Assembly (NCBI GenBank): GCA_040757335.1
Contig: JBFLXB010000003.1
Location: 53,899 to 117,898, forward strand
Source of the DNA: Nitrospirota bacterium
GTDB lineage: Bacteria; Nitrospirota; Nitrospiria; 2-01-FULL-66-17
DNA length: 64,000 bases
Direction of reading: 5' to 3'
The notes beneath the pieces were generated by a model that was not told where the DNA came from, ran no database searches, and saw nothing but the letters and a program-made list of their open reading frames with translations. The position numbers were made by a program, and so were the translations under genes. Shown here piece by piece: positions 11,721 through 54,531 of the stretch (positions are counted from its first letter, which is position 1; the number at the start of each line of letters is the position of its first letter).

Positions 11721-11750
11721 GACGATCGGTAACTTGACGGGCCGTAGAGC

Positions 11751-22666: not shown

Positions 22667-22784
22667 GCCTGTCCATGAACGGCCATCTGCTGCGTTGCCG
22701 CTGCGCTTCCGGTGCTCACGTACAACTCAGTACGCTGCGCTCCGGTTCTCGCGGCGCCTTGCATCTGACCGTTCCTGAACAGGC
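22667..22784. repeat. interspersed ~118-bp TIR-bearing repeat, copy B (plus orientation)
   Basis: gcctgtccatgaacgg...ccgttcctgaacaggc form 16-bp terminal inverted repeats. The internal sequence aligns to the other copies. Confidence 0.8.
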
Positions 22785-38642: not shown

Positions 38643-39332
38643 ATGGCTCGTCAATTTGCTGTAATCGGCCTTGGGCGGTTCGGGTACAGCGTCGCAGAAA
38701 CGCTCATCAAGAAAGGCTACGAGGTGCTGGCCATCGACAGCAACGAGGACCAGATCGAGGCCGTGAGCGACTTTGCGACCTACGCGGTGCAGTGCGACGC
38801 CACGGACGAACGTGCGCTCAAAGCGGTCAGCATTCAGAACGTCGACGTTGCGGTGGTGAGCATCGGGGAGAACATCGAGGCAAGCATTCTGATCGTCATG
38901 ACGCTCAAGGAACTGGGGGTCAAGGAGATCATTGCCAAGGCCGTGACCCCGCTGCACGGGAAGATCCTGGCCAACATGGGCGTGACGGAAGTGATCTATC
39001 CGGAACGGGACGCGGCGATCCGGCTCGCGCACCGCCTCATTGCTCCGAACGTGCTCGAGTACCTCGAACTTGCGCAGGGTTACAGTATCGAAGAGATCGA
39101 GGTGCCGGGGCAGTTCGTGGGCAAGCCGCTGAAAGAAGCCTCGATCCGGACCTCCTACGGCATCAACGTCATTGCGATCAAGCGCCGCGTCACCAAGCTC
39201 GTTCGCGGGGAGTGGAAGAGCGTCGAGGAGATGAACGTCAACCCCGACGCGGAGGACATCCTCCAGAAGGGCGACGTCATGGTTATTGTTGGCAAAGAGG
39301 AGGACTTAGACCGTCTTTCCAAATTAGATTGA
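38643..39332 (+). CDS. ktrA: Trk/Ktr K+ uptake regulatory subunit (RCK_N + RCK_C)
   Basis: Rossmann motif FAVIGLGRFGYSVAETL and a C-terminal TrkA-C domain. Confidence 0.85.
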   Translation: MARQFAVIGLGRFGYSVAETLIKKGYEVLAIDSNEDQIEAVSDFATYAVQCDATDERALKAVSIQNVDVAVVSIGENIEASILIVMTLKELGVKEIIAKAVTPLHGKILANMGVTEVIYPERDAAIRLAHRLIAPNVLEYLELAQGYSIEEIEVPGQFVGKPLKEASIRTSYGINVIAIKRRVTKLVRGEWKSVEEMNVNPDAEDILQKGDVMVIVGKEEDLDRLSKLD

Positions 39333-39387
39333 CCGCCATTTTTGCAGTTTCTATCCCCACCCTGCAGTCGTAGCCCTAGAAGTCGAC

Positions 39388-39504
39388 ACTCGCGCGCCCG
39401 TTCAGGAACGCGTCAGATGCAAGGCGGAGCGAGCGCCCGCACCGCAGCGTACTGGGTCGTACGTGAGGAGCGGACGCGCAGCGACAACGCAGCAGATGAT
39501 CGTT
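39388..39504. repeat. interspersed ~118-bp TIR-bearing repeat, copy C (minus orientation)
   Basis: cccgttcaggaacgcgtcagatgcaaggcgg...cgcagcagatgatcgttcatggacggg is the reverse complement of the copy B/D/E consensus. Confidence 0.8.
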
Positions 39505-39563
39505 CATGGACGGGTGCTGCCTAGGCCCTTCGCCCCAAGGCCGCGGTTAGGTCCTTTAGCCGC

Positions 39564-39592
39564 TTGACTGTCGAAAATACGGCGTGTTACAA
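39564..39592 (+). promoter_or_regulatory. weak candidate promoter (TTGACT-N17-TTACAA) for the nuo operon
   Basis: Good -35 element but a poor -10. Lies between repeat copy C and nuoA. Confidence 0.2.
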
Positions 39593-39627
39593 CGTCCGCT
39601 CCGGTAAAAAAATCAAGGCCCTATGGC

Positions 39628-40017
39628 GTGGCGATGACTCCGGATTCCGTGCTCTCTACATACCTGGCGAACTACGGTCCAGTCGTCATCTTTATGGCGA
39701 TTGCGGCGGCGTTCGGGGCCGGGACGCTGGTCTTCAGCTACCTGATCCACCCGCGGATCTACTCCACCGAGAAGCTTTCGGCGTACGAGTGCGGGAGTGA
39801 GCCGATTTCCGACGCACGGATGCCGTTTCCGGTCCGCTACTACATCATCGCCATGTTGTTCGTGATCTTCGACGTGGAACTCGTGTTTCTCTATCCCTGG
39901 GCCGTGGCGTTCGACAAAATCGGCCTGTTCGGGTTGATCGAGATGATCATCTTCATCCTGCTGTTCGTCGCGGCCTACGCGTACGCCTGGCGCAAGGGAG
40001 CGTTGGAATGGGATTGA
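39628..40017 (+). CDS. nuoA: NADH-quinone oxidoreductase subunit A
   Basis: 3-TM protein with YECG and PFPVRYY motifs. Confidence 0.85.
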
Positions 40018-40538
40018 TCAACATCACGCCGAGCGCGGGCGACGGCAAGACCGGGGACGTGGGGTTCGTCACCCTCAAGCTGGAGCAGGCCGTCAACTGG
40101 GCCCGCAAAGGCTCGTTGTGGCCCATGACGTTTGGGCTGGCGTGCTGCGCCATCGAGATGATCGCGGCGGTGTCGTCGCGTTACGACATGGACCGCTACG
40201 GCGCCGGGGTGTTTCGCGCCTCGCCGCGACAATCCGACCTGATGATCGTCGCCGGCACGGTTTGCCGCCGCATGGCGCCCGTGATCCGCAAGGTGTACGA
40301 CCAGATGCCCGAGCCCAAATACGTGATCGCGATGGGCTCGTGCGCCACGTCGGGCAACATCTACAACAGCTACCCGGTGGTCCAGGGCGTTGACCGCTTC
40401 GTGCCGGTGGATATCTACGTGCCGGGTTGCCCGCCGACGCCGGAGGCGTTGTTCGACGGGATTTTGCGGCTGCAAGAGAAGATCATGAAGCAGCGGGTGT
40501 TTGTTCAACGCGAAACATACGGGGCCATTAAAGCCTGA
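40008..40538 (+). CDS. nuoB: NADH-quinone oxidoreductase subunit B
   Basis: Contains the [13 protein letters not shown] and PGCPP N2-cluster ligand motifs. Confidence 0.9.
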
Positions 40539-41053
40539 TGCATCCGGTTGCTGAACAGATCAAAGCCAAGTTCCCCGAGACGTTCGTGCGGGCCACGGAG
40601 TTTCGCGGGGATTGGGCGGTGGAGGTCACGCGTGAAGGGCTGTTGGAAGTCGCCCGGTTTTTGCGCCACGACCCCGCGATGGACTACGACTACATCGTAC
40701 ACGTCAGCTCCGTGGACTGGCTCGGCGAGCCCGTGCGGTTCGAAGTGGTGTGGGAGATTTACTCCGTACGGCGCCGGCACCGGATTCGACTCAAGACGCG
40801 CGTGCCCGAATCCGACCCGGTCGTGGAGTCGCTGACCGGGTTCTGGAAGGGCTGTGAGTTCATGGAGCGCGAAGTGTACGACATGATGGGCATCCGCTTC
40901 GCGCATCACCCGGACCATCGCCGAATCCTGATGCCCGATGACTACCCCGAGGGGTACCCCCTGCGCAAGGATTTCCCGCTGGTGGGCAAGGGTTGGCGCG
41001 ACACGTTTGACTTCATGGAAGGCGGCGCCCCGTCGCCGCCGCGTAACCCATGA
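40538..41053 (+). CDS. nuoC: NADH-quinone oxidoreductase subunit C (30 kDa)
   Basis: EREVYDMMGIRFAHHPD...PLRKDFP motif. ATGA overlap with nuoB. Confidence 0.85.
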   Translation: MHPVAEQIKAKFPETFVRATEFRGDWAVEVTREGLLEVARFLRHDPAMDYDYIVHVSSVDWLGEPVRFEVVWEIYSVRRRHRIRLKTRVPESDPVVESLTGFWKGCEFMEREVYDMMGIRFAHHPDHRRILMPDDYPEGYPLRKDFPLVGKGWRDTFDFMEGGAPSPPRNP

Positions 41054-42270
41054 CCACGCCGGTCCAAACTCCCCCTCACTCCCAGAAAAAGCTGCCGCTG
41101 CTGCGGACCGAAGAACTCATGCTCAACATGGGACCGCAGCACCCCAGTACCCACGGCGTGTTGAAGGTCGTGCTGGAGTTGGAAGGCGAGCGGATCATGA
41201 AGGCCACGCCGGTGATGGGCTTCCTGCATCGTGGTGTGGAAAAGCTCGCCGAAGACGGAACCTATCACCAGTTCATCCCGCACACGGATCGGCTCGACTA
41301 CGTGTGCGCGATGTACAACAACTTTGCCTACGTCCGGGCCGTTGAGAAGCTCATGGGGATCACGGTCCCTCCGCGCGCCGAATACCTCCGTACCGTCGTC
41401 GCCGAAGTGCAACGGATCATCGGGCATCTGTTCTGGCTCGGCACCCAGGCCCTCGACATCGGCGCGATGACCGTGTTCTTCTACACGTTTCGCGACCGCG
41501 AGGAGCTGCTCGATTTCTTCGACAAGCTGTGCGGCGCGCGGCTGACCACGAGTTGGTATCGGATCGGCGGGGTGGAGCGCGACTTTACGCAGGATCTGAT
41601 CGACCAGCTCTACGCGTTCATCAAGACCTTTCCGCCCAAGATCGAGGAGTACAACGTGCTTCTCGAAAAGAACCGGATCTGGATGGCGCGCACCAGGGGA
41701 ATCGCCGTGATCTCGGCCGAAGACGCGTTGAGTTTCGGCCTGTCCGGTCCCACGTTGCGCGGCTCCGGGGTGGAGTACGATCTGCGCAAGGCCGAGCCCT
41801 ACGGCGCGTACGCCGACGTGGAATGGAGCGTGCCGATCGGCACCAACGGCGATACCTACGACCGGTATTGGGTGCGCATCGAGGAACTCAAAGAGAGCAG
41901 CAAAATCATCCGGCAGTGTCTGGACAGGCTGCCGGACGGGCCCATCATGGCCGATGTGCCTCAGGTCGTGGCGCCGACCAAGGACCGGGTGTTCAACAAC
42001 CTTGAGAGCATGATCATGCAGTTCAAGTTCTTTTCCGTGGGCTTTCCCACGCCCAAGGGGGAGATCTACTGTGGGACCGAGGCGCACAAGGGCGAACTGG
42101 GCTTCTACATCGTCAGCAACGGCGAGGGCAAGCCGTACCGGCTCAAGATCCGCGCGCCCTCGTTCATCCATATGGGCGCGTTCGACTATATGTCGCGGGG
42201 CTATATGATCGCCGATATCGTCACGATTTTTGGGACGTATGACATTGTTATGGGGGAGTGCGACCGGTGA
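41050..42270 (+). CDS. nuoD: NADH-quinone oxidoreductase subunit D (49 kDa)
   Basis: MLNMGPQHPSTHGVL...C-terminal DIVMGECDR. Confidence 0.9.
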   Translation: MTTPVQTPPHSQKKLPLLRTEELMLNMGPQHPSTHGVLKVVLELEGERIMKATPVMGFLHRGVEKLAEDGTYHQFIPHTDRLDYVCAMYNNFAYVRAVEKLMGITVPPRAEYLRTVVAEVQRIIGHLFWLGTQALDIGAMTVFFYTFRDREELLDFFDKLCGARLTTSWYRIGGVERDFTQDLIDQLYAFIKTFPPKIEEYNVLLEKNRIWMARTRGIAVISAEDALSFGLSGPTLRGSGVEYDLRKAEPYGAYADVEWSVPIGTNGDTYDRYWVRIEELKESSKIIRQCLDRLPDGPIMADVPQVVAPTKDRVFNNLESMIMQFKFFSVGFPTPKGEIYCGTEAHKGELGFYIVSNGEGKPYRLKIRAPSFIHMGAFDYMSRGYMIADIVTIFGTYDIVMGECDR

Positions 42271-42272
42271 TC

Positions 42273-42393
42273 GCCTGTCCATCAACGGCCATCTGCGGCG
42301 TTGTCGCTGCGCGTCCGCTCCTCACGTACGCACCCAGTACGCTGCGGTGCGGGCGCTCGCTCCGCCTTGCATCTGGCGCGTTGCTGAACAGGC
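42273..42393. repeat. interspersed ~118-bp TIR-bearing repeat, copy D (plus orientation)
   Basis: Begins 3 nt after the nuoD stop. cgcctgtccatcaacgg...gcgttgctgaacaggcg. Confidence 0.8.
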
Positions 42394-42414
42394 GCCGCTA
42401 CGCGGATTGGAAAG

Positions 42415-45189
42415 ATGGCTGAAGAGTTAATTTCAATTACCACGGACAAACCTGCGGTCCAGCTCACGATCGACAACGAAGTCGTCAATGTGCCGGAGGG
42501 GACGTCGATCTACGACGCGATCGTGGGGATGGGCAAGACTATCCCGAGCATGTGTTACCACTACACGTTCAATCCCTTTGGGTCCTGCGGCGTGTGTCTG
42601 GTCGAGGTCGAGGGGAAGAAGGCGCCGGTGCGATCGTGTACGTCGCCGGTTGCCGCGGGAATGATCGTGCGCGTGGACACCAAGGCCATGTTCGACGCGC
42701 GCAAAAAGGCGGTCGAGAAACACCTGCAGACGCATCCGCTCGATTGCCCGGTGTGCGACGCGGACGGACACTGCGAGCTGCAGGACATGAGCTTCAACTT
42801 CGGCATCGTCCAGATCGGCGAGGTCAAGCAAAAGGGGTTGCCCGAAGATCGGCGCAGCACCGTGCTCGATTTCAACATGAACCGGTGTATCCTGTGCGCG
42901 CAATGCATCAACATCTGCAAAGAAGTGGTCATGGTGGACGCCCTGCAGTTTTTCAAGAAGGGCGGCTTCACGCACGTGGTGGCCAAGGGCGACAAGGCCC
43001 TGGAGTGCGAATTTTGCGGCGACTGCCTGGCGGTGTGCCCGGTGGGCGCGATCACCAACAAGTTCTCCAAGTATCTCTACAAACCGTGGCAGCTCAAGCG
43101 GACCGTGACCGCGTGCAACTACTGCGCGGACGGCTGCCAGATGCGCGTCGAGGTCAAGGACGACGCGGTGGTGCGCGTGACGTCGCTGCTCTCCTGGAAG
43201 GACAAGTGGGACGACCACACTGCGACTGTGGACGGCCACGGCGGGTTGTGCGTCAGGGGGAGGTTCGGGTTCGCGTACATCAATAGCCCCGAGCGCCTGA
43301 AGAAACCGCTGATTCGCAAGGACGGCCGACTCGTGGAGGCGTCGTGGTTCGAATCGACCAACGAAGTCGTCAGCCGGCTGAAGGCGATCAAGGCCCAACA
43401 CGGCCCCGACGCCGTCGCCGGGTTGATCACCGCCCGGTGTACGAACGAGGATCTCTACGCGTTCCAGCGGTTCATGCGGCAGGTGGTGGGCACGAATCAA
43501 GTGGATTCGAGCAGCCGCTACGGCCACGCGGTCTACGTGGAGGCGATGGAGCGCGCGTTGGGCGTGGTGCAGCCCACGGTCTCGTTCCGCGACCTCACGC
43601 TCGCGCGCGCGATTCTGGTCGTCGGGTCGGACGTGACCGAGACCAATCCCATCACGGCGCTGCGGATCAAGGACGCGTTCAGCAATTTCCACAGCCAGTT
43701 GATCGTCGCGCATTCGATGCAGACCAATTTGGCCAAGCTGGCGCCGTATCCCTATCAAATTGCGGTGGCTTCGGAGGGTGCATTCATCCAGGGCTTGACC
43801 AAGGCCGTGCTGGAGGGGGAATTGGTCCCGTCCCGCGTCGTCAATGAGCACGGGACGGCGCTGAGTGCGCTCAAAACCGCGGTTGGGACTCTGTCGTGGG
43901 ATGCGCTGTGTGCCGCAACCGGCCTCTCTCGCGAGGCGTTCACCGAAGCCGCCCGAGTCTTCATGTCGGACGGTTCGCGCGTGATCGTGCTCGGCGAGCA
44001 GATCGTGGATCGGCCGGACGCGTACGCCAACGTGTTGCGGGTCGCCGACCTCATGCTGGCCGCCGGGATGGTGGGACAACGTGGTTCGGGCGTGCTGCGC
44101 TTGTGTGAAGAGAACAACGAGCGCGGCGCGGTGGCGGTGGGCGCGATGGCGGATCGGCTGCCCGGCGGATCCCGGTACGGCGACGTTGCGGCGCGGGCCA
44201 AAGTCGAGACCGCGTGGGGCGGCGGGCTGCCGAACGGTGGGGCGACGCTGACCGAGATTCTCGACGGGATCCGCGCGGGCCGAATCAAGGCGTTGTACGC
44301 CGTGGGCGAAAACCCGTTGGGGACGTTGCCCTCGAATGCGGACGTGCGCGACGCGTTGACGAAGCTCGATCTGGTGATCGTGCAGGACGCGTTTCTGACC
44401 GAAATGGGTGACGTCGCCCACATCGTGCTACCGGCCGCACTGGCGGCCGAGAAGGACGGGACGTTCCTGGACGGACAGGGGAAACTGCAGCCGGTCGTAC
44501 GGGCGCTGGATGCTCCGGGTGAGGCTCGAAGTGATTGGGAGATTTTTTCGGAACTGGGCCAGCTCATGGGCGCGCCGTTCGATTACACGGCGCCGGAGGA
44601 AATCCGGCGCGAATTGCTCCAGATCGCGCCGGGGGTGTTCGAGATGCCGACGCCGGTCGCGCGGCGCGACGACCGGGCGACCGACCTGACGGCTCGGTAC
44701 GCGCAGCCAGCAGTGGCTGGCGACGCGCCCAGCAAGGAGTATCCCTTCGACCTGTCGCTCTACCAGGTGCTCTATCATTCGGGCAAGATGTCCACCCGAG
44801 ACAAAGGGCTGCTCGAAATCCATGCCAAGAAGCTGCTACAAATCTCGGCGAAAGACGCCGAAGCGCTGGGCGTCACTGATGGCGGCCGGGTGAAGGTCAC
44901 CTCGCCGTATGGGTCGGTCGAGGTCGGCGTCGAAATCAGCCTCGACCTCCCGAACGGATCGTGTCGGTTTCCCGAACACTTCAACGACCCGGCAGTGAGA
45001 GATCTGTTGCCAATGCGCGTAGATCCGGTGAGCAAGGCGCCGGTGTTCAAGTCGGGACGGGTGCGGATCGAGAAAGTCGCCCCCCCACCCGGCCCTCCCC
45101 CGCAAGGGGGGAGGGTGGAAAATCACACCGTGACCATTCCCTCCCCCTTGACGGGGGAGGGCGAGGGAGGGGGTGTGTCCGGCGCATGA
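42415..45189 (+). CDS. nuoG: NADH-quinone oxidoreductase subunit G-like (2Fe-2S, 4Fe-4S, molybdopterin-oxidoreductase fold)
   Basis: N-terminal 2Fe-2S region (CYHYTFNPFGSCGVCLV), His-ligated HPLDCPVCDADGHC, then two 4Fe-4S motifs. Long MoCo-like domain. The last ~35 codons are encoded by GC hairpin repeats. Confidence 0.8.
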   Translation: MAEELISITTDKPAVQLTIDNEVVNVPEGTSIYDAIVGMGKTIPSMCYHYTFNPFGSCGVCLVEVEGKKAPVRSCTSPVAAGMIVRVDTKAMFDARKKAVEKHLQTHPLDCPVCDADGHCELQDMSFNFGIVQIGEVKQKGLPEDRRSTVLDFNMNRCILCAQCINICKEVVMVDALQFFKKGGFTHVVAKGDKALECEFCGDCLAVCPVGAITNKFSKYLYKPWQLKRTVTACNYCADGCQMRVEVKDDAVVRVTSLLSWKDKWDDHTATVDGHGGLCVRGRFGFAYINSPERLKKPLIRKDGRLVEASWFESTNEVVSRLKAIKAQHGPDAVAGLITARCTNEDLYAFQRFMRQVVGTNQVDSSSRYGHAVYVEAMERALGVVQPTVSFRDLTLARAILVVGSDVTETNPITALRIKDAFSNFHSQLIVAHSMQTNLAKLAPYPYQIAVASEGAFIQGLTKAVLEGELVPSRVVNEHGTALSALKTAVGTLSWDALCAATGLSREAFTEAARVFMSDGSRVIVLGEQIVDRPDAYANVLRVADLMLAAGMVGQRGSGVLRLCEENNERGAVAVGAMADRLPGGSRYGDVAARAKVETAWGGGLPNGGATLTEILDGIRAGRIKALYAVGENPLGTLPSNADVRDALTKLDLVIVQDAFLTEMGDVAHIVLPAALAAEKDGTFLDGQGKLQPVVRALDAPGEARSDWEIFSELGQLMGAPFDYTAPEEIRRELLQIAPGVFEMPTPVARRDDRATDLTARYAQPAVAGDAPSKEYPFDLSLYQVLYHSGKMSTRDKGLLEIHAKKLLQISAKDAEALGVTDGGRVKVTSPYGSVEVGVEISLDLPNGSCRFPEHFNDPAVRDLLPMRVDPVSKAPVFKSGRVRIEKVAPPPGPPPQGGRVENHTVTIPSPLTGEGEGGGVSGA
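45093..45161. repeat. two 23-nt GC hairpins with an identical 9-bp stem (ccctccccc/gggggaggg) embedded in the nuoG 3' end
   Basis: 45093-45115 ccctccccc-gcaag-gggggaggg and 45139-45161 ccctccccc-ttgac-gggggaggg. Confidence 0.6.
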
Positions 45190-45737
45190 CGCTCAAGGAA
45201 CTTTTCGATAAGGCGGTGATGACCGAGATCTTGGACGGCTTGAAGACCACGTTCAAGCACATGTTCGTGAAGCCCGTGACCTTCCAGTATCCGCACGAGA
45301 AACGCGAGATACCCGACACGCATCGGGGCGCGCTGTGCCTGTTGCGGTACGACGACGGCAAGGAACGCTGCGTGGGCTGCGATCTCTGCGAGGCGGCCTG
45401 CCCCTCGCGCTGTATCAAAGTCGTGAGCGAAGAGGACCCCGAGACCCCGCTGCGCCGGATCGCGACGGAATTTTATATCGACATCACCAAGTGCGTGTTT
45501 TGTGGGTTCTGCGTGGAGGCGTGCCCGGTCAATGCGCTCGGCATGACCAAGATGTACGAGTACTCCACGACGAATAAGCGCGATTTGATGTTCGACAAGG
45601 CTCGGCTCTACCAGATCGGCGATCAGTTGCTCGCCGACGCCAAGAAGTACCTCGTTGCGCACCACCAGGAAGAGAGCGACGAGGCCGCCCGCCAGTACCG
45701 CTACAAGTTCCCCTACGCCACCGCCAGGAAGGGCTGA
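45186..45737 (+). CDS. nuoI: NADH-quinone oxidoreductase subunit I (2x[4Fe-4S] ferredoxin)
   Basis: CVGCDLCEAACP and CVFCGFCVEACP. ATGA overlap with nuoG. Confidence 0.85.
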   Translation: MTLKELFDKAVMTEILDGLKTTFKHMFVKPVTFQYPHEKREIPDTHRGALCLLRYDDGKERCVGCDLCEAACPSRCIKVVSEEDPETPLRRIATEFYIDITKCVFCGFCVEACPVNALGMTKMYEYSTTNKRDLMFDKARLYQIGDQLLADAKKYLVAHHQEESDEAARQYRYKFPYATARKG

Positions 45738-45745
45738 TTGGGCGG

Positions 45746-46378
45746 ATGAGCGCGGTCGCTTTCTACTACCTCGCCGCGGTCACCATTGTGACCGGCGTGC
45801 TCGCCATCACGCTGCGCAGTCCCGTGCACTGCGGCCTGTCGCTGGTCGCGATGCTCATCCACATGGCCGGCTTCTTCGTCCTGCTGAACGCCGAATTCAT
45901 CGCGGCGGTCCAGGTGATCGTGTACGCGGGCGCGATCCTGGTCCTCTATTTATTCGTGATCATGCTCTTGAACCTCAAGAGCGACGAGCGGGTGTTCCAC
46001 AAACGCTATATCGGCATCGGGCTCATCACCATCGCGATCATCACCCAGGTGGCGATCCTGGTATTTCGCTCGCCGTATGCCGGGATGACGGGCGACGCGA
46101 CCCCGGAGGTCGTGCTGGGGGTGGGACAGACCAAGGCGATCGGGATCGTCATGTTCCGCGACTACCTGTTGCCGTTCGAGCTGATCGGCCTCTACCTCCT
46201 CGCAGCGATCGTAGGCGCGATCGTGCTGGCCAAGACGCCCGCGGCATCGGATCGGCCCGCGCTGGCCGAGGGAGACCGGTTGCCGCTTGGGACGGGGGAT
46301 GGCGACGGGTTGCCGAGTGCGGCATCCGAGGAGACAGCGGAGACCGTCGGCGGCCACCATGGAGGCCACGGTCCCTGA
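45746..46378 (+). CDS. nuoJ: NADH-quinone oxidoreductase subunit J
   Basis: 5-TM ND6-like protein with a low-complexity C-terminal tail. Confidence 0.8.
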   Translation: MSAVAFYYLAAVTIVTGVLAITLRSPVHCGLSLVAMLIHMAGFFVLLNAEFIAAVQVIVYAGAILVLYLFVIMLLNLKSDERVFHKRYIGIGLITIAIITQVAILVFRSPYAGMTGDATPEVVLGVGQTKAIGIVMFRDYLLPFELIGLYLLAAIVGAIVLAKTPAASDRPALAEGDRLPLGTGDGDGLPSAASEETAETVGGHHGGHGP

Positions 46379-46683
46379 TGACGATCACGCTGACCCACTA
46401 CCTCGTCGTCAGCACGATCATCTTTTCACTCGGGCTTCTCGGCGTGCTGATCCGCCGCAATTTCATCATCGTGCTCATGGCCGTGGAAATGATGCTCAAC
46501 GCCGCCAATCTCAATCTGGTGGCGTTTTCGCACTACCTCAATTCCCTCACCGGCCAGATGGTCGCATTGTTTACGATCGCCATTGCCGCGGGCGAGGCCG
46601 CGGTGGGGCTCGCCATCATCGTGGTGATTTTCCGCGGCAAGATCGCGACCAATGTGGATCAGATCAATCTCCTGAAATGGTGA
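46378..46683 (+). CDS. nuoK: NADH-quinone oxidoreductase subunit K
   Basis: 101-aa 3-TM ND4L-like protein (LMAVEMMLNAANLNLVAFS). ATGA overlap with nuoJ. Confidence 0.85.
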   Translation: MTITLTHYLVVSTIIFSLGLLGVLIRRNFIIVLMAVEMMLNAANLNLVAFSHYLNSLTGQMVALFTIAIAAGEAAVGLAIIVVIFRGKIATNVDQINLLKW

Positions 46684-46717
46684 GACCGACCTCCGTCAAT
46701 CCCGGAAATCCCCCCAT

Positions 46718-46804
46718 CCCCCCTTTTTCAAAGGGGGGTAGAGGCGGGGCGGCTCCCGTGAATCTGTTGACCCTTCCTAGTATCCCCCCTTTGGAAAAGG
46801 GGGG
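46718..46804. repeat. two 21-nt hairpins (ccccccttt-NNN-aaagggggg) flanked by G-runs, in the nuoK-nuoL spacer
   Basis: 46718-46738 and 46784-46804. The loops are ttc and gga. Confidence 0.6.
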
Positions 46805-46833
46805 TGAGGGGGGATTTGGTTTTAAAACCTAGC

Positions 46834-48828
46834 ATGCTCTCCGTCGTCCTCATCCCGCTCCTGCCGCTGCTGGCCGTCCTCATCAACGGCGTGTTCGGCC
46901 GCCGGTACCTCAAAGAAGCCTCGCACTACTTCGCGGTAGGGTCGGTCGCGATCTCGTTCGTGCTGTCCATCTCGCTCTTGCTGCGCGTGATGGGCGGCGA
47001 TTCGCCGATCTCCGTTCCCATCTACTCGTGGATTTTTGGCGGAGGCCTCGATATCCACCTGGGATTCCTGATCGATCCGCTCTCCGCCGTGATGTTGATG
47101 GTGGTCACGGGCGTGGGGTTGCTGATCCACATCTATTCGATCGGGTACATGCACGGGGACCCCGGGTACTACCGCTTCTTCACGTACCTCAATCTGTTCA
47201 TGGTCTCCATGCTCCTGCTGGTGATGGGGGACAACTACCTGGTCCTCTTCATCGGGTGGGAAGGCGTGGGCCTGTGCTCGTACCTGTTGATCGCGTACTA
47301 CTTTGAGAAGGAATCCGCGACCAAAGCGGGCACCAAGGCGTTCGTGGTCAACCGCATCGGCGACGCGGGTTTTCTCGTCGCGATCTTTCTGATCATCCAG
47401 GAGTTCGGCACGCTGAACTATCTGGAAGTCTTCGACCGCGCCCACGAGCTGTCCACGGGCATGGCCACCGCGATCGCGTTGTGCCTGTTCATCGGCGCGA
47501 TCGGTAAATCCGCTCAGATCCCGCTGTACACGTGGTTGCCGGACGCGATGGAAGGTCCCACGCCGGTCAGTGCCTTGATCCACGCGGCCACCATGGTCAC
47601 CGCCGGGGTCTACATGGTAGTGCGCAACCACGCGATCTACGACCTGGCGCCGGTGGCGCTGACCACGGTGGCGGTCATCGGCGGGCTGACCGCGATCTTC
47701 GCCGCGACCATCGGCTTGGTCCAAACCGATATCAAGCGCGTGTTGGCCTACTCGACCGTGAGCCAGCTCGGGTACATGTTCCTGGGCTGCGGCGTAGGCG
47801 CGTACGCGGCCGCGATTTTCCACCTGGTTACACACGCGTTTTTCAAGGCGCTGCTGTTTTTGGGCTCCGGCAGCGTGATCCACGCGTTGGGCGGGGAGCA
47901 GGACATCCGCAAGATGGGCGGACTCAAGGCTGAGATTCCGGTGACTGCGCTGACGTTCTTAATCGGCACGATCGCGATCGCCGGGCTGCCTCCGTTGGCC
48001 GGGTTTTGGAGCAAAGACGAGATTCTTGGCATGGCGTTCAAGGGCGGGCACGGCGTGCTCTGGCTGATCGGCATGACCGGCGCATTCCTGACGTCGTTCT
48101 ACATGTTCCGCCTGTTCTATGTCACGTTCACCGGTACCACCAGGATGGACCACCACGTGGCGCAACACGTCCACGAGTCGCCCGGCGTGATGACCGTCCC
48201 GTTGATGATCCTGGCCGGGTTGTCGTTGCTCGGCGGGCTGATCCTGGGTGTCCCGCCCGAGGGCGGGTTGCTCCATGCTTTTCTCGCGCCGGTGGCATCG
48301 GCCGAGGGCGGGGAGGCGCACCACGGGTTCGGCGCCACTGACGTGGTCCTGATGGTCGCGTCCGTCCTCATTGCGCTGGGCGGCTGGTGGCTCGCGTACA
48401 CCATGTATGTGCGTCGTCCCGAGATGGCCGAGGCGTGGGCGCTGAAGTACGGGAATGCGCACCGTTTATTGCTGAACAAGTATTGGGTGGATGAGCTGTA
48501 CGATTTGCTGGTGGTCGAGCCGTCCAAGCGTCTCAGCGAGATCTGGGCGTGGTTCGACAACGTGGTGATCGACGGCGTGGTCCGCGGTGCGGCGCGCATG
48601 ACCCAGAGCAGTGCCTGGCTGTCGACCGCGATCGAGAAGTACGTTATTTATGGCTTCTTGAATGTGGTGGGCTACTCCAATCACTTGGGCGCGCGCACGT
48701 TCCGCCTCTTGCAGACCGGGTTTGTGCACCACTACGCGTTCATCCTGGTCATCGGCCTGGCGTTGATGGTGTATGTCTTCTGGTGGTGGAGCGGAGGCAG
48801 CGTGGCCGGCCTGCTGGCGCAGCGATGA
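46834..48828 (+). CDS. nuoL: NADH-quinone oxidoreductase subunit L (long form)
   Basis: ND5-like antiporter subunit, about 665 aa from MLSVVLIPLL. This is roughly 50 aa longer than E. coli NuoL (as recalled), which fits an extended lateral helix. Confidence 0.85.
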   Translation: MLSVVLIPLLPLLAVLINGVFGRRYLKEASHYFAVGSVAISFVLSISLLLRVMGGDSPISVPIYSWIFGGGLDIHLGFLIDPLSAVMLMVVTGVGLLIHIYSIGYMHGDPGYYRFFTYLNLFMVSMLLLVMGDNYLVLFIGWEGVGLCSYLLIAYYFEKESATKAGTKAFVVNRIGDAGFLVAIFLIIQEFGTLNYLEVFDRAHELSTGMATAIALCLFIGAIGKSAQIPLYTWLPDAMEGPTPVSALIHAATMVTAGVYMVVRNHAIYDLAPVALTTVAVIGGLTAIFAATIGLVQTDIKRVLAYSTVSQLGYMFLGCGVGAYAAAIFHLVTHAFFKALLFLGSGSVIHALGGEQDIRKMGGLKAEIPVTALTFLIGTIAIAGLPPLAGFWSKDEILGMAFKGGHGVLWLIGMTGAFLTSFYMFRLFYVTFTGTTRMDHHVAQHVHESPGVMTVPLMILAGLSLLGGLILGVPPEGGLLHAFLAPVASAEGGEAHHGFGATDVVLMVASVLIALGGWWLAYTMYVRRPEMAEAWALKYGNAHRLLLNKYWVDELYDLLVVEPSKRLSEIWAWFDNVVIDGVVRGAARMTQSSAWLSTAIEKYVIYGFLNVVGYSNHLGARTFRLLQTGFVHHYAFILVIGLALMVYVFWWWSGGSVAGLLAQR

Positions 48829-50450
48829 TGGAGCAGGTGTTCGCGGCGCAGCAGCTCGGATTCCCGATCCTCACCATCGTCACGTTCCTGCCGTTGGCCG
48901 GGGCGCTCGTGGTCTGGGCGCTGCGCGACGAAGCGATTGCCTGGAAAGTCGGGTTCGCGGTGGCGGCGGCCGACTTCGCGTTCAGCCTGCCCGTGTTTTT
49001 CGCGTTCACGCTCGACTCGTCGGCGATGCAGTTCGTGGAGCGGTACGCGTGGATTCCCGTTATCGGCGTGAGCTATCACGTCGGCGTGGACGGGATCAGC
49101 ATGCTGTTCGTGGTGCTGACCACGCTGCTGGGGTTCTTGATCGTGGTCTACGCGTCCGGGGTCGTGACGGAGCGCGTGCGCGGTTTCCTCATGGCGCTTT
49201 TCGCGTTGCAGACCACGATGTTGGGCGTGTTTGTCTCGCTGGATCTTGTGTTGTTTTTCCTGTTCTGGGAACTGATGCTGATCCCCTCGTACTTCATGAT
49301 TCGGCTGTGGGGCACCGAAGGCAAGGAGTACGCCGCGATCAAGTACGTGGTCTACACCCTATTGGGCAGCGTGCTGATGCTGGTGGGGATCGTGATCTTG
49401 TACCTGCAGCACTACCGGTTCGCGTCGATCCATGGTCTGGCCCCCGCGTTGTCGTTCGATCTGCTCGATCTGTTGCGGACGCCGATGTCCCTGGAAGTCC
49501 AGCTGGCGATCTTCGTGTTTCTCTTTTTCGGGTTCGCGTTCAAGACGCCGATCATTCCGTTTCACACCTGGATGCCTGATGCGCTGTATTCGGGGCCCAT
49601 CGCGATGAGTGTGATCCTGGCCGGTGTCAAGCTGGGAACGTTCGGGTTCGTGCGCTACTCGTTGCCGCTGGTGCCGGACGCGGCTCGTGCCGCGCTCCCG
49701 GTGATGATGGTGCTCGGGTTGATCGGCATTCTCTACGGTGCGTACATCGCGCTGATGCAGGCCGACTTCCGCAAGCTGTTGGCGTATTCCTCGATCAGCC
49801 ACCTCGGGTACGTGGCGCTCGGGATCTTCGCGCTGACGTACCAAGGGATCCAGGGAGGGCTGATCCAGATGATCAACCTCGGGATCTCGACCGCGGGGCT
49901 GTTCTTCTTCGCAGGCTTTCTCTGGACCCGGCGGCAGACGTTGACCATCGCGGAGTTCGGCGGGCTGGCCAAGACCACGCCCGTGCTGGCCACGTTTTTC
50001 CTCATCATGGTGCTCTCATCGATCGGCCTGCCGGGCACCAACGGGTTCATCGGGGAGTTCCTGATCCTGTTCGGCGCATTCAAAGCGCACTGGATCTACG
50101 GCGCGGTCGGGGTGCTGGGCGTGATCCTCGGCGCCGCGTACATGCTGTGGTTTTACGAACGCGCCGTTTTCGGCGCCGTGACTAAGGCCGTCAATGAACG
50201 CTTGCCGGACCTGGGCGGGCGTGAACTGGCGATTGCGCTGCCGCTGGTCGCGCTGGTCTTCTGGATCGGCGTGTATCCGTCGCCGTTTTTGCATCGGATC
50301 AACGGCTCGGTCGAGTCCCTGCACGCGCGGTTGCAGCCCAAAGCCGCCCTGTCAGCCACCGTTGGGGTTTCGCCTGATCAGGACGCGCTTTCTCCCCCTC
50401 TCCCAGTCGCCCCCTCTCCCCCTCGTCTTGCTTCTTCCGGGGCCCCGTGA
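48825..50450 (+). CDS. nuoM: NADH-quinone oxidoreductase subunit M (copy 1)
   Basis: ND4-like protein with a Pro/Ala-rich C-terminal tail. ATGA overlap with nuoL. Confidence 0.85.
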   Translation: MMEQVFAAQQLGFPILTIVTFLPLAGALVVWALRDEAIAWKVGFAVAAADFAFSLPVFFAFTLDSSAMQFVERYAWIPVIGVSYHVGVDGISMLFVVLTTLLGFLIVVYASGVVTERVRGFLMALFALQTTMLGVFVSLDLVLFFLFWELMLIPSYFMIRLWGTEGKEYAAIKYVVYTLLGSVLMLVGIVILYLQHYRFASIHGLAPALSFDLLDLLRTPMSLEVQLAIFVFLFFGFAFKTPIIPFHTWMPDALYSGPIAMSVILAGVKLGTFGFVRYSLPLVPDAARAALPVMMVLGLIGILYGAYIALMQADFRKLLAYSSISHLGYVALGIFALTYQGIQGGLIQMINLGISTAGLFFFAGFLWTRRQTLTIAEFGGLAKTTPVLATFFLIMVLSSIGLPGTNGFIGEFLILFGAFKAHWIYGAVGVLGVILGAAYMLWFYERAVFGAVTKAVNERLPDLGGRELAIALPLVALVFWIGVYPSPFLHRINGSVESLHARLQPKAALSATVGVSPDQDALSPPLPVAPSPPRLASSGAP

Positions 50451-52036
50451 TGCTCGACCAGCACCTCTTGTCGATCATTCTGTTCGCGCCGTTCGTCGGC
50501 GCCGCCGTGCTCTTGTTCGTCGACGGCAAGAAGTTGATGCAGGTTCGCGTGATCGCGGCGGTTTCCAGCGGGATCTCGTTCGTCGCGTCGGTGTACCTGT
50601 TGTACGCCTTCAACTACGCGCCCGGGTCGCCGCAGTTTCAGTTCCTCGAACAGTACGAGTGGTCGAAGGACCTGGGGATTTCGTTCTTCCTGGGCGTGGA
50701 CGGCATGTCGGTGCCGCTCGTGCTGGCGTCGTCGGTGTTGTTGTTCGCGGGGGTGTTCGTGTCGTGGCACATCGAAGACCGGGCGCGCGAGTTCTATATC
50801 TTCCTGCTGATCCTGGCGTCCGCAACGATCGGCGTGTACGTCTCGCTGGACCTCTTCTTCCTCTACTTTTTCTACGAGATGTCGGTGTTGCCCATGTATC
50901 CGCTCTTGGGCGTGTGGGGCAGCCACACCAAGGGCTACCTGGAGATGAAGGACACGGCCAAACGCGACTCCGTGGGCTTCATTTTCAACTTCGCGTCCAA
51001 CAGCAAGGAATACGCCGCGATGAAGCTGACGTTGTTTCTGTCGGCCGGCGCGGTGGTGGCGTTGCTGGGGATCTTCCTGACCTATGTGGGCACCGGCCTC
51101 AACACGTTCAACCTCATCGAACTGCAGGGTCACGAGCAGCAGTTTTCGCCCGTGATGCGCAGCGTGATCTGGCTGCTGCTCTTTTTCGGGTTCGCCTCGA
51201 TCGCGCCTCTCTGGCCCATGCACTCGTGGTCTCCGGTGGGCCACGCGGCCGCGCCCGCCGCGGTGTCCATGCTGCACGCGGGCGTGCTGATGAAGCTCGG
51301 GCATTTTTCGATCATCCGCGTCGCGTACTGGCTGTTCCCCCAGACCACCCAGGAGTGGGCGTTCCTGATCGCGATCCTGTGCGTGTTCTCGATCATCTAC
51401 GGCGGACTGGTGGCGTTCTTCCAGCGCGACACCAAATACGTGATCGGCTACTCCAGCTCCAGTCACATGGGCTACATCTTCCTGGGGATGGCCGCGCTCA
51501 ACATGATCAGCATGACCGGCGCCGTGCTCTACATGTTTGCGCACGCGCTGGCCACGGGGATGCTCTTTGCCATGGCCGGCTGGGTGTACGACCAGACCCA
51601 CACGCGGGATATCCCCTCGCTGGGCGGCCTGGGCCAGAAGATGCCGTTCATCATGGGCGCGTTCGTCGTGGCCCTGGTGGCTTCGGTGGGGCTGCCGGGC
51701 ACCGTCAACTTCATCGGCGAGCTGATGATCCTATCCGGGAGTTGGGAGCAGTATCCCGTCCAGGTGGTGATCGCCGTGATCGGCATCGTCATCACCCTCG
51801 CGTATCTGATGCGGATGTTCATCGGATTGTTCCTGGGCGACATGCAGCCCAAGTGGGCGCACGCCGGCGACGCGCGCTGGATCGACCGCGTGCCTTTGCT
51901 CATCATGATCTTCGGGAGCCTGTACTTTGGGTTGTTCCCCAGCCAGTTCATCCACGTGATCAGCGCGGGCATGCAGCCGATCCTGGAACAAATTAACGCG
52001 GCGGGCGCAGTAGCCTCCGCCGGGGGCGGAGGCTAG
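50447..52036 (+). CDS. nuoM: NADH-quinone oxidoreductase subunit M (copy 2, divergent paralog with an internal insertion)
   Basis: ND4-like protein. Insertion GSHTKGYLEMKDTAKRDSVGFIFNFASNSKEYAAMK. Start overlaps the nuoM copy 1 stop. Confidence 0.8.
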   Translation: MMLDQHLLSIILFAPFVGAAVLLFVDGKKLMQVRVIAAVSSGISFVASVYLLYAFNYAPGSPQFQFLEQYEWSKDLGISFFLGVDGMSVPLVLASSVLLFAGVFVSWHIEDRAREFYIFLLILASATIGVYVSLDLFFLYFFYEMSVLPMYPLLGVWGSHTKGYLEMKDTAKRDSVGFIFNFASNSKEYAAMKLTLFLSAGAVVALLGIFLTYVGTGLNTFNLIELQGHEQQFSPVMRSVIWLLLFFGFASIAPLWPMHSWSPVGHAAAPAAVSMLHAGVLMKLGHFSIIRVAYWLFPQTTQEWAFLIAILCVFSIIYGGLVAFFQRDTKYVIGYSSSSHMGYIFLGMAALNMISMTGAVLYMFAHALATGMLFAMAGWVYDQTHTRDIPSLGGLGQKMPFIMGAFVVALVASVGLPGTVNFIGELMILSGSWEQYPVQVVIAVIGIVITLAYLMRMFIGLFLGDMQPKWAHAGDARWIDRVPLLIMIFGSLYFGLFPSQFIHVISAGMQPILEQINAAGAVASAGGGG

Positions 52037-52155
52037 CCTGTCCATGAAGGACCATCTGCGGCGTTGCCGCTGCGCATCCGGTGCTCACGTACGCACCCAG
52101 TACGCTGCGCTCCGGTGCTCGCGGCGCCTTGCATCTGGCCCGTTCCTGAACAGGC
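52036..52155. repeat. interspersed ~118-bp TIR-bearing repeat, copy E (plus orientation)
   Basis: gcctgtccatgaaggacc...cccgttcctgaacaggc. Begins at the nuoM copy 2 stop. Confidence 0.8.
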
Positions 52156-52191
52156 TTGTAGGGGCACGACATTGGATGGATATCTAGGCCA

Positions 52192-53658
52192 ATGGAATTC
52201 ACACTGACCATCTCGTTTGCCGACCTGCTCTTGATGCTCCCGGAGCTCTTGCTCACGGGATTGATCGGTGTCGTCCTCTTCATCGACTTTACCTTCACCA
52301 AGGTCAGCAAGAACTCCCTGGCTTGGATCACGGTCGCTGGCCTGTGCGGTATTCTGGCGAGTCTGGTGTGGATGTGGGCCGCGGGCGTCCAAGGGGCGTT
52401 GTTCAAGCAGACCTTCGTGCTCGATCCGTTCGCGGTGTTCTTCAAAATCGTGGTGGTGCTGGCGACGATCTTGATCGTGCTGGCGTCGCTCGACTACATC
52501 AAGCGCATCGTCTTGTTCCGCGGCGAGTACTACCTCATGGTCATGTTGTCGGCGTTGGGGATGCTGTTCATGGCGTCGTCCAACGACCTCCTGACCATGT
52601 TCATCACCATCGAGTTCTCCACGTTCGGCTTCTACATTCTGGTGGCCTATTTGCGCGAGGACGATCTTCGATCCAGCGAGGCGGGTTTGAAGTACTTCGT
52701 CCTGAGCGTCTTCACCGCCGCGGTGATGGTGTTCGGGATCAGCCTGATTTACGGCGAGACCGGCACGATCATTTTCCCCGAGATCGCGGCGGCACAGCCG
52801 GTCCTGACCGGCGGTTTGATCATCGGGTTCCTCTGCTTGTTGGTGGGCCTGGGATTCAAGATCGGCGCGTTCCCGTTCCACAACTGGATTCCTGATATCT
52901 ACCAGGGCGCGCCGACCCCGATCACCGCCTACCTGGGGATCGCCCCCAAAGCCGCGGCATTAGCGATCGTGCTGAGGGTGTTCTTTTCAACCTTCGGCCA
53001 GTTCAAGCCCGAGTGGGTGTGGCTGGTGATCGGCATGGCTGCGTTGTCCATGACCTACGGGAACGTGGTGGCCATTGCGCAGACCGACATCAAGCGCATG
53101 CTCGCGTATTCCGGCATCGCGCAGATGGGCAATATGCTGATCGGCCTCGCGGCCGGGACCAAAATGGGCGGCGACTCGGTGATGTTCTACCTGCTGACGT
53201 ACCTGGTGGCCAACATCGGGGCGTTCGCCGTGGTCATCGTCTTCTCCAACCTGACGGGCAGCGATCGCATCGAGGACTACCGAGGCCTGGCCCGCCGCGC
53301 GCCGCTGTTGGCCGCGGCGATGTTGGTCTTTCTGCTTTCGCTCGCCGGCGTCCCGCCGTTGGCGGGCTTCATCGCGAAGATCTACGTGTTCACGGCGGCC
53401 ATGAAGCAGGGGTTGATCGTGCTGGTCTGTATCGGCTTGGTCAACATCGTGATCTCGATGTACTACTACCTCGTCATCGTGAAGAGGATGTACATCAACG
53501 AGCCCACGGACCGTCGCCCGATCCCGATGTCGGCTCCGATGCAGGCCGTGGTCTACACCACGCTCGCGGGCACCGTGATCCTCGGCATCTACCCCAAGCC
53601 CTTCATCGAGTGGGCGGTCTCCTCCACCGCCCTGTTCGCGCACCTCGTCGGGCCGTAA
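52192..53658 (+). CDS. nuoN: NADH-quinone oxidoreductase subunit N
   Basis: ND2-like 14-TM protein. Confidence 0.85.
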   Translation: MEFTLTISFADLLLMLPELLLTGLIGVVLFIDFTFTKVSKNSLAWITVAGLCGILASLVWMWAAGVQGALFKQTFVLDPFAVFFKIVVVLATILIVLASLDYIKRIVLFRGEYYLMVMLSALGMLFMASSNDLLTMFITIEFSTFGFYILVAYLREDDLRSSEAGLKYFVLSVFTAAVMVFGISLIYGETGTIIFPEIAAAQPVLTGGLIIGFLCLLVGLGFKIGAFPFHNWIPDIYQGAPTPITAYLGIAPKAAALAIVLRVFFSTFGQFKPEWVWLVIGMAALSMTYGNVVAIAQTDIKRMLAYSGIAQMGNMLIGLAAGTKMGGDSVMFYLLTYLVANIGAFAVVIVFSNLTGSDRIEDYRGLARRAPLLAAAMLVFLLSLAGVPPLAGFIAKIYVFTAAMKQGLIVLVCIGLVNIVISMYYYLVIVKRMYINEPTDRRPIPMSAPMQAVVYTTLAGTVILGIYPKPFIEWAVSSTALFAHLVGP

Positions 53659-53698
53659 GTCCGTTGTCGCACCGGCTGTGTCACGCTCCATTCGTATC

Positions 53699-53727
53699 TT
53701 GAGCGGGGTGACGGCGTATGCCATAAT
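53699..53727 (+). promoter_or_regulatory. candidate promoter (TTGAGC-N17-CATAAT) for the M48 peptidase gene
   Basis: Hexamers at 53699-53704 and 53722-53727. Confidence 0.3.
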
Positions 53728-53748
53728 CCGCTTCCGAACGGAGTCGGA

Positions 53749-54531
53749 ATGAAGACCTCGCATCGTTGGCTGCTCGCCGCGAGCAGCGCGCTCGCCATGT
53801 TGGTCGTGGCGTGCCAGACCGTGCCGCTCACGGGGCGGCAACAGTTGATCTTGATCTCGACCGAGGAGGAACTGAGTCTCGGCGCCGAAGCGTATAAAAA
53901 GACGCTCAAGGAGTCGAAGCTTAGCCAGGATCAGGCGGCCACGGCCATGGTGCGCCGCGTGGGCGAGCGCATCGCCAAGGTGGCGAATCGGCCGGACTTC
54001 ACGTGGGAGTTCAATCTCGTCGAGGACAAGACTCCGAACGCGTTTTGCCTGCCGGGCGGCAAGGTCGTGGTCTATACCGGGATCTTGCCGTTCACCAAGG
54101 ACGAGACGGGCTTGGCCGTGGTGGTGGGCCATGAGGTTGCGCACGCTCTCGCCCGGCACGGGGCGGAGCGCATGTCCACCGGCGTGCTGGCCGATCTTGC
54201 GGGGAAGACCGCAGGGGTCGTGTTCGGGGGCGGGAATCCCGAGACCGCCAGCGCGGTGGAACAGGCGTTCGGGATCGGGAGTGGCGTGGGTGTGATTCTC
54301 CCGTTCAGCCGCCACCAGGAATCTGAGGCCGACAAGATCGGCCTGCTGCTGATGGCTCAGGCTGGGTACGACCCGCGCGCGGCCACGGAATTCTGGAAGC
54401 GCATGGGCCAGGGGAAAGACGGCGCTCCGCCGGAGTTTCTCTCCACGCACCCCAGCGACGAGACGCGGATCAAACGCATCGAAGGCTGGATGCCCGAGGC
54501 ACTGAAGATCTACCAGGCCGGGGCAGGGTAG
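53749..54531 (+). CDS. M48-family zinc metallopeptidase (lipoprotein)
   Basis: HEVAHAL zincin motif plus downstream ESEAD. Lipobox ALAMLVVAC. Confidence 0.75.
   Translation: MKTSHRWLLAASSALAMLVVACQTVPLTGRQQLILISTEEELSLGAEAYKKTLKESKLSQDQAATAMVRRVGERIAKVANRPDFTWEFNLVEDKTPNAFCLPGGKVVVYTGILPFTKDETGLAVVVGHEVAHALARHGAERMSTGVLADLAGKTAGVVFGGGNPETASAVEQAFGIGSGVGVILPFSRHQESEADKIGLLLMAQAGYDPRAATEFWKRMGQGKDGAPPEFLSTHPSDETRIKRIEGWMPEALKIYQAGAG

Follow-up and report, generated by a model that had tools for sequence, protein, structure and literature searches.

The nuo operon in a 64,000-nucleotide (nt) stretch of a Nitrospirota bacterium genome (contig JBFLXB010000003.1, positions 53,899 to 117,898; hereafter the window, whose own numbering is used throughout) contains four short hairpins, two at the extreme 3′ end of the gene for a NuoG-like Fe-S/molybdopterin subunit, and two in the spacer between nuoK and nuoL. 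Judged by their sequences, all four hairpins are repeats of the class previously named BoxC or PIT, and also intrastrand triplex motif (TM), or TMECO in Escherichia coli (Holder et al. 2015, PMC4666352), with the canonical architecture and in two subfamilies. The best explanation as a whole, which we consider likely, is that TM units are present as two inverted pairs, one of them inserted in frame in nuoG, and that they are tolerated repeats. Most likely the doublets are repeats of a selfish or neutral kind, found where the DNA is unstable and insertions are permitted, and not dedicated regulators of nuo. Both the odd tail of NuoG and the oversized operon spacer are explained as repeat insertions, which guards against over-reading them as nuo regulation.

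Architecture and rarity of the four hairpins

The hairpin CCCTCCCCC-5 nt-GGGGGAGGG occurs twice in the NuoG-like gene, at 45093–45115 and 45139–45161, with starts 46 nt apart, and the hairpin CCCCCCTTT-3 nt-AAAGGGGGG occurs twice in the nuoK–nuoL spacer, at 46718–46738 and 46784–46804. All four have 9/9 Watson–Crick pairs between a pyrimidine arm and a purine arm, and loops of 3 or 5 nt. An earlier note on the window had described two identical 9-bp stems at the end of nuoG that generate an odd protein tail before the ATGA overlap with nuoI, which is confirmed by direct reading and translation, and two related hairpins in the 150-bp nuoK–nuoL spacer, which were found as described. The pattern CCCTCCCCC-N5-GGGGGAGGG gave 0 matches in 100 dinucleotide-preserving shuffles. 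A scan of the whole 64 kb for perfect homopyrimidine-arm hairpins returned none of the same kind beyond the four; one extra homopyrimidine-arm hairpin, at 19908, has a 7-bp CTTCTCC stem and no C-run.

Each hairpin adjoins a 9-nt tail that mirrors its own purine arm, with 9/9 triads and linkers of 2–3 nt according to a simple finder of our own for the hairpin and mirror-block layout. A TM unit is composed of five blocks, i.e., a pyrimidine arm, a loop of 3–5 nt, the complementary purine arm, a linker of 2–3 nt, and a third 9-nt block in mirror order to the purine arm, in which each G faces a G and each A faces either A or T. Watson–Crick pairing leaves the mirror unexplained. A mirror-symmetric purine block beside a hairpin is how an intramolecular triplex of the purine motif (class II) is laid out (triads G•G:C, A•A:T and T•A:T), and from its sequence a single DNA strand of a TM unit can be predicted to fold into such a triple helix. 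In the window the finder reported exactly four perfect 9-triad units, compared with 0 in 30 shuffles:

45082..45115, minus strand: TM unit 1, read on the minus strand as CCCTCCCCC-cttgc-GGGGGAGGG-cc-GGGTGGGGG; finder 9/9 pairs and 9/9 triads, nhmmer E = 2e-8
45116..45138, plus strand: inter-unit spacer of the nuoG doublet, 23 nt, holding a small hairpin TCAC-acc-GTGA
45139..45173, plus strand: TM unit 2, CCCTCCCCC-ttgac-GGGGGAGGG-cga-GGGAGGGGG; finder without mismatches, nhmmer E = 5.6e-9
46707..46738, minus strand: TM unit 3, of an A/T-containing subfamily, read on the minus strand as CCCCCCTTT-gaa-AAAGGGGGG-at-GGGGGGATT; from the finder
46739..46783, plus strand: inter-unit spacer of the nuoK–nuoL doublet, 45 nt
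46784..46816, plus strand: TM unit 4, CCCCCCTTT-gga-AAAGGGGGG-tga-GGGGGGATT; from the finder

The units are arranged as two inverted (“−+”) pairs with their tails pointing outward, 45082–45173 and 46707–46816, and a repeat finder reported the matching larger inverted repeats (45081–45115 with 45139–45173, and 46706–46738 with 46785–46817). The left and right outer blocks are CCCCCACCC and GGGAGGGGG in the nuoG pair, and AATCCCCCC and GGGGGGATT in the nuoK–nuoL pair. As RNA, each doublet prefers a single long hairpin of 92–110 nt, with folding energies of −79.0 and −78.5 kcal/mol (z = −5.8 and −5.1 relative to shuffles); these ViennaRNA values describe the hairpin part only, since triplexes are outside its model. 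The A/T-containing subfamily of unit 3 is also present in five loci from other genomes (L001, L070, L077, L113, and L126).

As a positive control, the finder recovered both published E. coli units in the hrpB–mrcB spacer. These units (L207, E. coli MG1655 164547–164631) carry no annotation in RefSeq, and annotation look-ups will therefore not reveal the BoxC/TM family. An Rfam search of 39000–54000 at E <= 1 gave merely sub-threshold matches to miRNA-precursor models, which are generic noise from long hairpins, and a literature search with the literal sequence strings returned nothing relevant. The quadruplex repeat of Rehm et al. 2015, which is built of GGGNATC heptamers, was considered for the window hairpins and rejected as a different element.

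Insertion sites in the nuo operon

The two sites occupied by the doublets, and the genes at the nuoG junction, are as follows:

42415..45189, plus strand: gene for the NuoG-like Fe-S/molybdopterin subunit (Pfam, translation), 924 aa, host of the insertion
45079..45180, plus strand: in-frame insertion at the 3′ end of the NuoG-like gene, 102 nt, comprising the TM inverted doublet with 3 nt on its 5′ side and 7 nt on its 3′ side; boundaries set by eye
45186..45737, plus strand: nuoI, with an ATG that overlaps the stop codon of the NuoG-like gene (ATGA), likewise in 4/5 orthologous loci
46684..46833, plus strand: nuoK–nuoL intergenic spacer, 150 nt, of which the second doublet fills 110 nt

Five orthologous nuo loci (L001, L002, L003, L005, and L006) were compared with the window. 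NuoG ends as EKV(G/A)(A/P) or (E/V)KVG in all of them, and nuoI follows directly, except in L005 where a 78-nt spacer intervenes. The DNA at the junction is uninterrupted, GAGAAgGTsGGCGCATGA or GTCGCCCCATGA, and hairpins at the nuoG end were found in 0/5 loci. A close metagenome relative identified through NuoI (L127, 90% identity) also has no element. The nearest NuoG homologues are 79–86% identical, derive from Nitrospirota metagenome-assembled genomes, and are 889–890 aa long, and among 120 NuoG homologues essentially all end 0–3 residues past IEKV. Since the orthologs have no tail, the tail of the window protein is an insertion relative to them. This outcome is the opposite of tails shared without hairpins, which the earlier note had named as the finding in orthologs that would refute its proposal. 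Its suggestion of REP-like insertions agrees with the absence of the tail from the five loci and from nearly all of the 120 homologues, and with the units belonging to a dispersed repeat family, while the remodelling of gene ends, which it had also suggested, has literally taken place at nuoG.

The C-terminus of the NuoG-like protein reads ...EKVAPPPGPPPQGGRVENHTVTIPSPLTGEGEGGGVSGA / ...RIEKVAPPPGPPPQGGRVENHTVTIPSPLTGEGEGGGVSGA up to the stop codon. The inserted 34-residue tail is rich in Pro and Gly, and lies past the final conserved residues of the molybdopterin-binding domain, whose end is near residue 880. Four of the six reading frames are open across the doublet. Because the length of the insertion (34 codons) is a multiple of three and there is no stop in frame, the doublet is expected to be read through with the ATGA overlap with nuoI retained, and the tail is thus predicted to be translated. 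For annotators, this means that the last 34 residues of the NuoG-like protein are repeat-derived.

The doublet entered the gene at its very 3′ end, and the reading frame continues through it into the 34-residue tail. On reaching the end of NuoG, ribosomes would be expected to unwind the −79 kcal/mol hairpin and then to start again at nuoI, and this would make an insertion tolerable at the end of nuoG. An untranslated hairpin of such strength directly upstream of nuoI would probably block the nuoI start, so that only an in-frame copy would survive there. An in-frame insertion in a gene for a complex I subunit is noteworthy, although it is not unique, as described below.

One homologue is exceptional. 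P0008, which is known as a protein only and represents a moderately diverged lineage, ends as ...IEKITPHPSLPRKGG, which matches the +1-frame reading of the nuoG element of the window; frame 1 of the window across the element reads SPPHPALPRKGGGWKITP and then stops. Judging from these peptides, the nuoG site of P0008 is apparently occupied by the element too, and the palindrome is probably where its record breaks off. The alternatives are an old element with several losses, or a hotspot at the nuoG site.

The second site has a different distribution. In L005 and L006 the nuoK–nuoL spacers are 23 and 43 nt long, respectively, without any element, and in L002 and L003 they hold an unrelated palindromic repeat of ~120 nt. 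L001 has a single hairpin with a tail on each side, AAATCCCCCCCTCCCCCCTTTTTCAAAGGGGGGTAAGGGGGGATTT, and shares with the window the flank ATTTGGTT on the 3′ side of the doublet. The difference between the window and L001 is exactly 66 nt, which equals the period between the two nuoK–nuoL hairpins and therefore fits slippage between identical hairpins. Such an event would have deleted 66 nt in L001, where the remaining hairpin is flanked by a tail at either end. The nuoK–nuoL doublet predates the split from L001 and was present in the common ancestor. The collapsed hairpin is similar to the deletions within inverted BoxC/PIT pairs that leave a hairpin, termed the “palindrome effect” (PMC4666352). 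The window and L001–L006 thus constitute natural presence/absence pairs for effects on expression and stability.

The repeat family across genomes and its relation to known repeats

The nuoG-type hairpin was searched for in one genome per bacterial or archaeal species, and at least 120 loci matched, a number of which chance alone could yield in high-GC DNA. The matches span Alpha-, Beta-, and Gammaproteobacteria, Desulfobacterota, Chloroflexota, Bacteroidota, Planctomycetota, Gemmatimonadota, and Nitrospirota. A shared 3′ extension is present in 106 of ~140 oriented matches, with the form YY-CCCTCCCCC-cttgN-GGGGGAGGG-ttg-GGG-T/A-GGGGG. Within the window, a nhmmer profile built from these 106 units, from which the window was excluded, matches the two nuoG units alone, with E = 6e-9 and 2e-8.

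The same loci contain hairpins with other arms, and in these the tail tracks the arm in mirror order:

purine arm GGGGGAGAG, tail GAGAGGGGG
purine arm GGGAGAGGG, tail GGG(T/A)GAGGG
purine arm GGGGGAAGG, tail GGATGGGGG
purine arm GGGGAGAAGG, tail GGAAGAGGGG
purine arm AAAGGGGGG, tail GGGGGGATT
purine arm AAAGAGGGG, tail GGGGAGATT

For 60 units, representing 25 arms that differ from the query arm, the mean mirror score is 0.900, compared with 0.784 ± 0.012 when tails are permuted, and 0/2000 permutations reached 0.900; copies within one genome share descent, so these units are not all independent events. Even so, each of the 25 arm types, which come from different phyla, has a tail that fits its own arm. 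Perfect mirror tails were found in 37/60 units, to be compared with 10/60 matches in direct orientation. An A in the arm faces A 102 times and T 86 times.

When applied to the 120 genome loci, the finder identified 204 units, and neighbours within 150 nt are inverted in 79/80 pairs, 11 of which are a single hairpin with two tails. The inverted-pair arrangement seen in the window is the commonest in the family. According to a crude gene caller filtered by GC3, ~79% of the hairpin matches are intergenic, with few between divergent genes. Pfam assigns the 115 genes that flank units elsewhere to ordinary housekeeping families, and among these 115 flanking open reading frames no mobilising gene (RAYT, DUF559, or transposase) was found.

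At least eight TM doublets are located in frame within real genes elsewhere, and Pfam confirmed 8/9 cases checked, with domains either side of the doublet or spanning it. The genes encode DnaE, an oxoprolinase, GltB, a PFL-like enzyme, GlnE, a P-type ATPase, HupE/UreJ, and a FecR-TPR protein. The in-frame doublets, which lie in unrelated phyla (L035:4263–4400, L087:3380–3480, L052:1340–1420, L050:5500–5600, L072:2060–2120, L064:4560–4700, L090:2120–2210, and L107:4500–4600), encode peptides such as SLPPCGGGLGRGV and PSPLVGEGGGGG.

Two further occurrences were noted. In L113 (Nitrospirae bacterium RIFCSPHIGHO2_01_FULL_66_17), both subfamilies of the window occur within less than 8 kb, as a nuoG-type doublet at 2818–2890 and a nuoK–nuoL-type unit at ~3312, less than 500 nt apart. 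In IMG/VR, the nuoG-type hairpin is present on at least 120 predicted viral contigs (L208–L327), a count made without excluding host flanks of proviruses, and 70/120 of these contigs have full TM units (127 units), mostly as inverted pairs. The units on viral contigs bear on how the family could cross phyla.

Earlier work on BoxC and PIT elements is reportedly that of Bergler in 1992 and of Hoyne, Maher et al. in 2000, and nearly all studies of the TM family concern E. coli, in which the units are intergenic. The E. coli consensus is CCCTCNCCC-N3-6-GGGNGAGGG-N3-GGGNGAGGG, and strain MG1655 has 23 copies, all intergenic and several as inverted pairs; the units form a triplex in vitro according to circular dichroism (CD) and nuclear magnetic resonance (NMR), they are not associated with transposons, phages, or plasmids, and strains differ more in sequence around them, which indicates local instability (PMC4666352). 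As in the E. coli elements, the layout of the window units has five blocks: the pyrimidine arm, the purine arm, and the mirror purine block measure 9 nt each, the loop between the arms 3–6 nt, and the linker ahead of the mirror block ~3 nt. Further similarities are the frequency of inverted (“palindromic”) pairs, deletions after which a hairpin remains, the absence of an adjacent transposase, and presence/absence variation among relatives, and the finder handles the E. coli hrpB–mrcB units and the window units identically. The literal TMECO consensus is, however, unmatched in the window. The nuoG units match blocks 1 and 2, but have GGG(T/A)GGGGG instead of GGGNGAGGG as third block, while the nuoK–nuoL units deviate in all blocks and have GGGGGGATT in the third; each tail nonetheless mirrors its own arm correctly. 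The window units are accordingly sequence variants of the class and not TMECO itself. Another difference is the host, a Nitrospirota bacterium. Unlike the MG1655 copies, the nuoG doublet lies within an open reading frame, while the nuoK–nuoL doublet is intergenic. The in-frame cases in other genomes imply that intergenic location is a property of E. coli and not of the class; in-frame insertion of TM doublets is unmentioned in the E. coli-centred paper (PMC4666352).

Insertion of a palindromic repeat of ~100 nt in frame in a housekeeping gene, with read-through as an extra peptide, is reminiscent of the Rickettsia palindromic elements (RPE; Ogata et al. 2000), which are found in frame in genes according to a later review (PMC10969869). 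The similarity is one of behaviour, and a sequence relationship is not expected, since RPEs are AT-rich, specific to Rickettsia, and without a triplex-type mirror block.

The mirror covariation across many phyla, the near-constant inverted pairs, and the read-through in conserved enzymes provide evolutionary evidence for a selected triplex-forming geometry. Together with the units on viral contigs, the cross-phylum covariation and the in-frame insertions in essential genes reach beyond the window.

Alternative explanations and other features of the nuo cluster

The earlier note had raised the possibility of attenuators that tune subunit stoichiometry. More broadly, the hairpins might be selected regulators at the RNA level, i.e., attenuators, exonuclease barriers, or processing sites, which set the ratio of NuoA–K (or NuoG/I) to NuoL–N. 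Long hairpins of high stability could arise in the transcript (−79 kcal/mol, z about −5 to −6), and a long palindrome occupies the nuoK–nuoL spacer in 4/6 lineages, as the TM doublet in the window, the collapsed TM in L001, and the unrelated ~120-nt palindrome in two others. In E. coli, REP hairpins can stabilise upstream mRNA. The elements are, however, unconserved in close relatives, with empty spacers in L005 and L006 and no nuoG element in the five orthologous loci, and in many phyla such units are found beside genes that have no relation to nuo. A Rho-independent terminator would likewise have a GC-rich stem-loop, and ATTTGGTTTT follows the nuoK–nuoL doublet, but these T’s belong to the mirror tail (the ATTT after the hairpin is the mirror of AAA), and the nuoG doublet has no T-tract and is within an open reading frame. 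A terminator scan of 44800–47100 made a sole call, an unrelated site at 46551, and neither a terminator-like nor a promoter-like site was called at either doublet. In E. coli, PIT elements had neither promoter nor terminator activity (Hoyne & Maher, as cited in PMC4666352). A regulatory role is therefore unlikely, and attenuation as proposed in the earlier note is not borne out. Only a negligible chance is left for the tail being ordinary coding sequence, or for hairpins that arose by chance or local duplication. In its favour are the open reading frame and the direct repetition of the two nuoG hairpins at a distance of 46 nt, but this explanation is refuted by the shuffles, which gave zero matches, by orthologs without the tail, and by a profile from other phyla that matches both nuoG units.

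Two other explanations concern the nature of the repeat. The functional structure could be a G-quadruplex, or an i-motif on the C-strand, instead of a triplex. With four G-tracts and loops of ~1:2–3:1, nuoG-type units (G5-A-G3-N2-3-G3-W-G5) should by sequence be good quadruplex formers, but nuoK–nuoL-type and other A/T-containing units have the same architecture with only two G-tracts each. Moreover, over 25 arm variants the placing of A in the arm and that of A/T in the tail change together in mirror register, AAA/ATT ends included, which a quadruplex does not require, and CD and NMR of E. coli units indicated a triplex (PMC4666352). That a quadruplex is the defining structure, as the earlier note had also considered, is thus scarcely probable; it is mirror symmetry, and not the presence of four G-tracts, that co-varies. 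It is also very unlikely that the doublets are REPINs of an ordinary REP family, mobilised by a RAYT-type tyrosine transposase. Such elements resemble the TM doublets in being short palindromic units, mostly as inverted doublets that fold to one long hairpin, mostly outside genes with fewer between divergent genes, and in differing in presence among relatives. REP families are usually lineage-specific, whereas the TM unit sequence is shared across phyla. The TM consensus lacks a conserved GTAG-type head, and the conserved mirror block has no REP counterpart and is unexplained by hairpin recognition. A Y1 transposase (Y1_Tnp, RAYT) was found in 0/115 flanking genes; the window’s own genes were not all scanned, and no search for a RAYT gene was made in the window itself.

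Several observations weigh against two inverted pairs of tolerated TM units as the explanation. We know of no enzyme that mobilises the TM family. The relatives of the window organism carry few units, with 1 site in 400 kb of nuoI-centred loci, and in the window itself the evidence for multiple copies is limited to four units at two sites; the family looks sparse in this clade. A target-site duplication at the nuoG insertion is undefinable since the boundaries are ambiguous (GTC|G...TCC|G). The apparent occupancy of the same nuoG site in P0008, in another frame, speaks against a simple history with a single recent gain. That a structured element is present in the nuoK–nuoL spacer of 4/6 lineages could mean that a hairpin is selected for at this place and not just tolerated. 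Finally, a stable triplex was undetected in vivo in E. coli (PMC4666352).

Beyond tolerated repeats, a more far-reaching proposal, which is conceivable but which we regard as doubtful, is that TM doublets are a pan-bacterial mobile element that rides phage genomes and repeatedly inserts in frame, as RPEs do, in essential genes (DnaE, GltB, GlnE, and a complex I subunit). The covariation of arms and mirror tails over at least 25 arm variants would then mean that the triple helix itself is selected, as a single-stranded DNA intermediate recognised by a copying or insertion machinery, and target specificity would account for two lineages having the element at one and the same nuoG codon.

The nuo cluster extends over 39628–53658 with the order A-B-C-D-(NuoG-like)-I-J-K-L-M-M-N, including two copies of NuoM. 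Genes for nuoE, nuoF, and nuoH were found neither in the window nor in the five orthologous loci. Features downstream of nuoI include:

45746–46378: nuoJ (Pfam)
46378–46683: nuoK, assigned by position; no Pfam match in the frame scanned, the ortholog gene being Oxidored_q2
46834–48828: nuoL (Pfam), followed by the two nuoM copies and nuoN
50392..50424, plus strand: mirror repeat made of pyrimidines, CTCCCCCTCTCCC-7 nt-CCCTCTCCCCCTC, within the variable tail that ends NuoM copy 1

The polypyrimidine tract that the earlier note had placed at the 3′ end of nuoM copy 1 is real (50385–50450, 79% pyrimidine), but it does not belong to the hairpin family, having neither a purine arm nor a hairpin, and its interpretation as a degenerate TM unit was rejected for want of a purine arm. 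The repeat at 50392–50424 is the only 13-nt perfect mirror repeat in the window and is of H-DNA type, and in every ortholog the last ~35 residues of NuoM copy 1 vary. The nuoM tail stands apart from the TM units and is of minor weight.

Another palindromic repeat, which is ~120 nt long, differs from the TM units, and probably equals the “first family” of the earlier note, is present at 42273–42395 (+), 52036–52155 (+), 39394–39514 (−), 22667–22784 (+), and 11749–11883 (−). Rfam gave no match for the three copies within 39000–54000, a scan that left out 22667–22784 and 11749–11883. The repeat has the ends GAGCCTGTYCA...TGAACAGGCTC and the core CACGTACG...CAGTACG, and folds with −56 to −72 kcal/mol. 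In the window it occupies the nuoD–nuoG, nuoM2–nuoN, and trkA–nuoA spacers, and in relatives the nuo B–C, D–G, K–L, and M2–N spacers.

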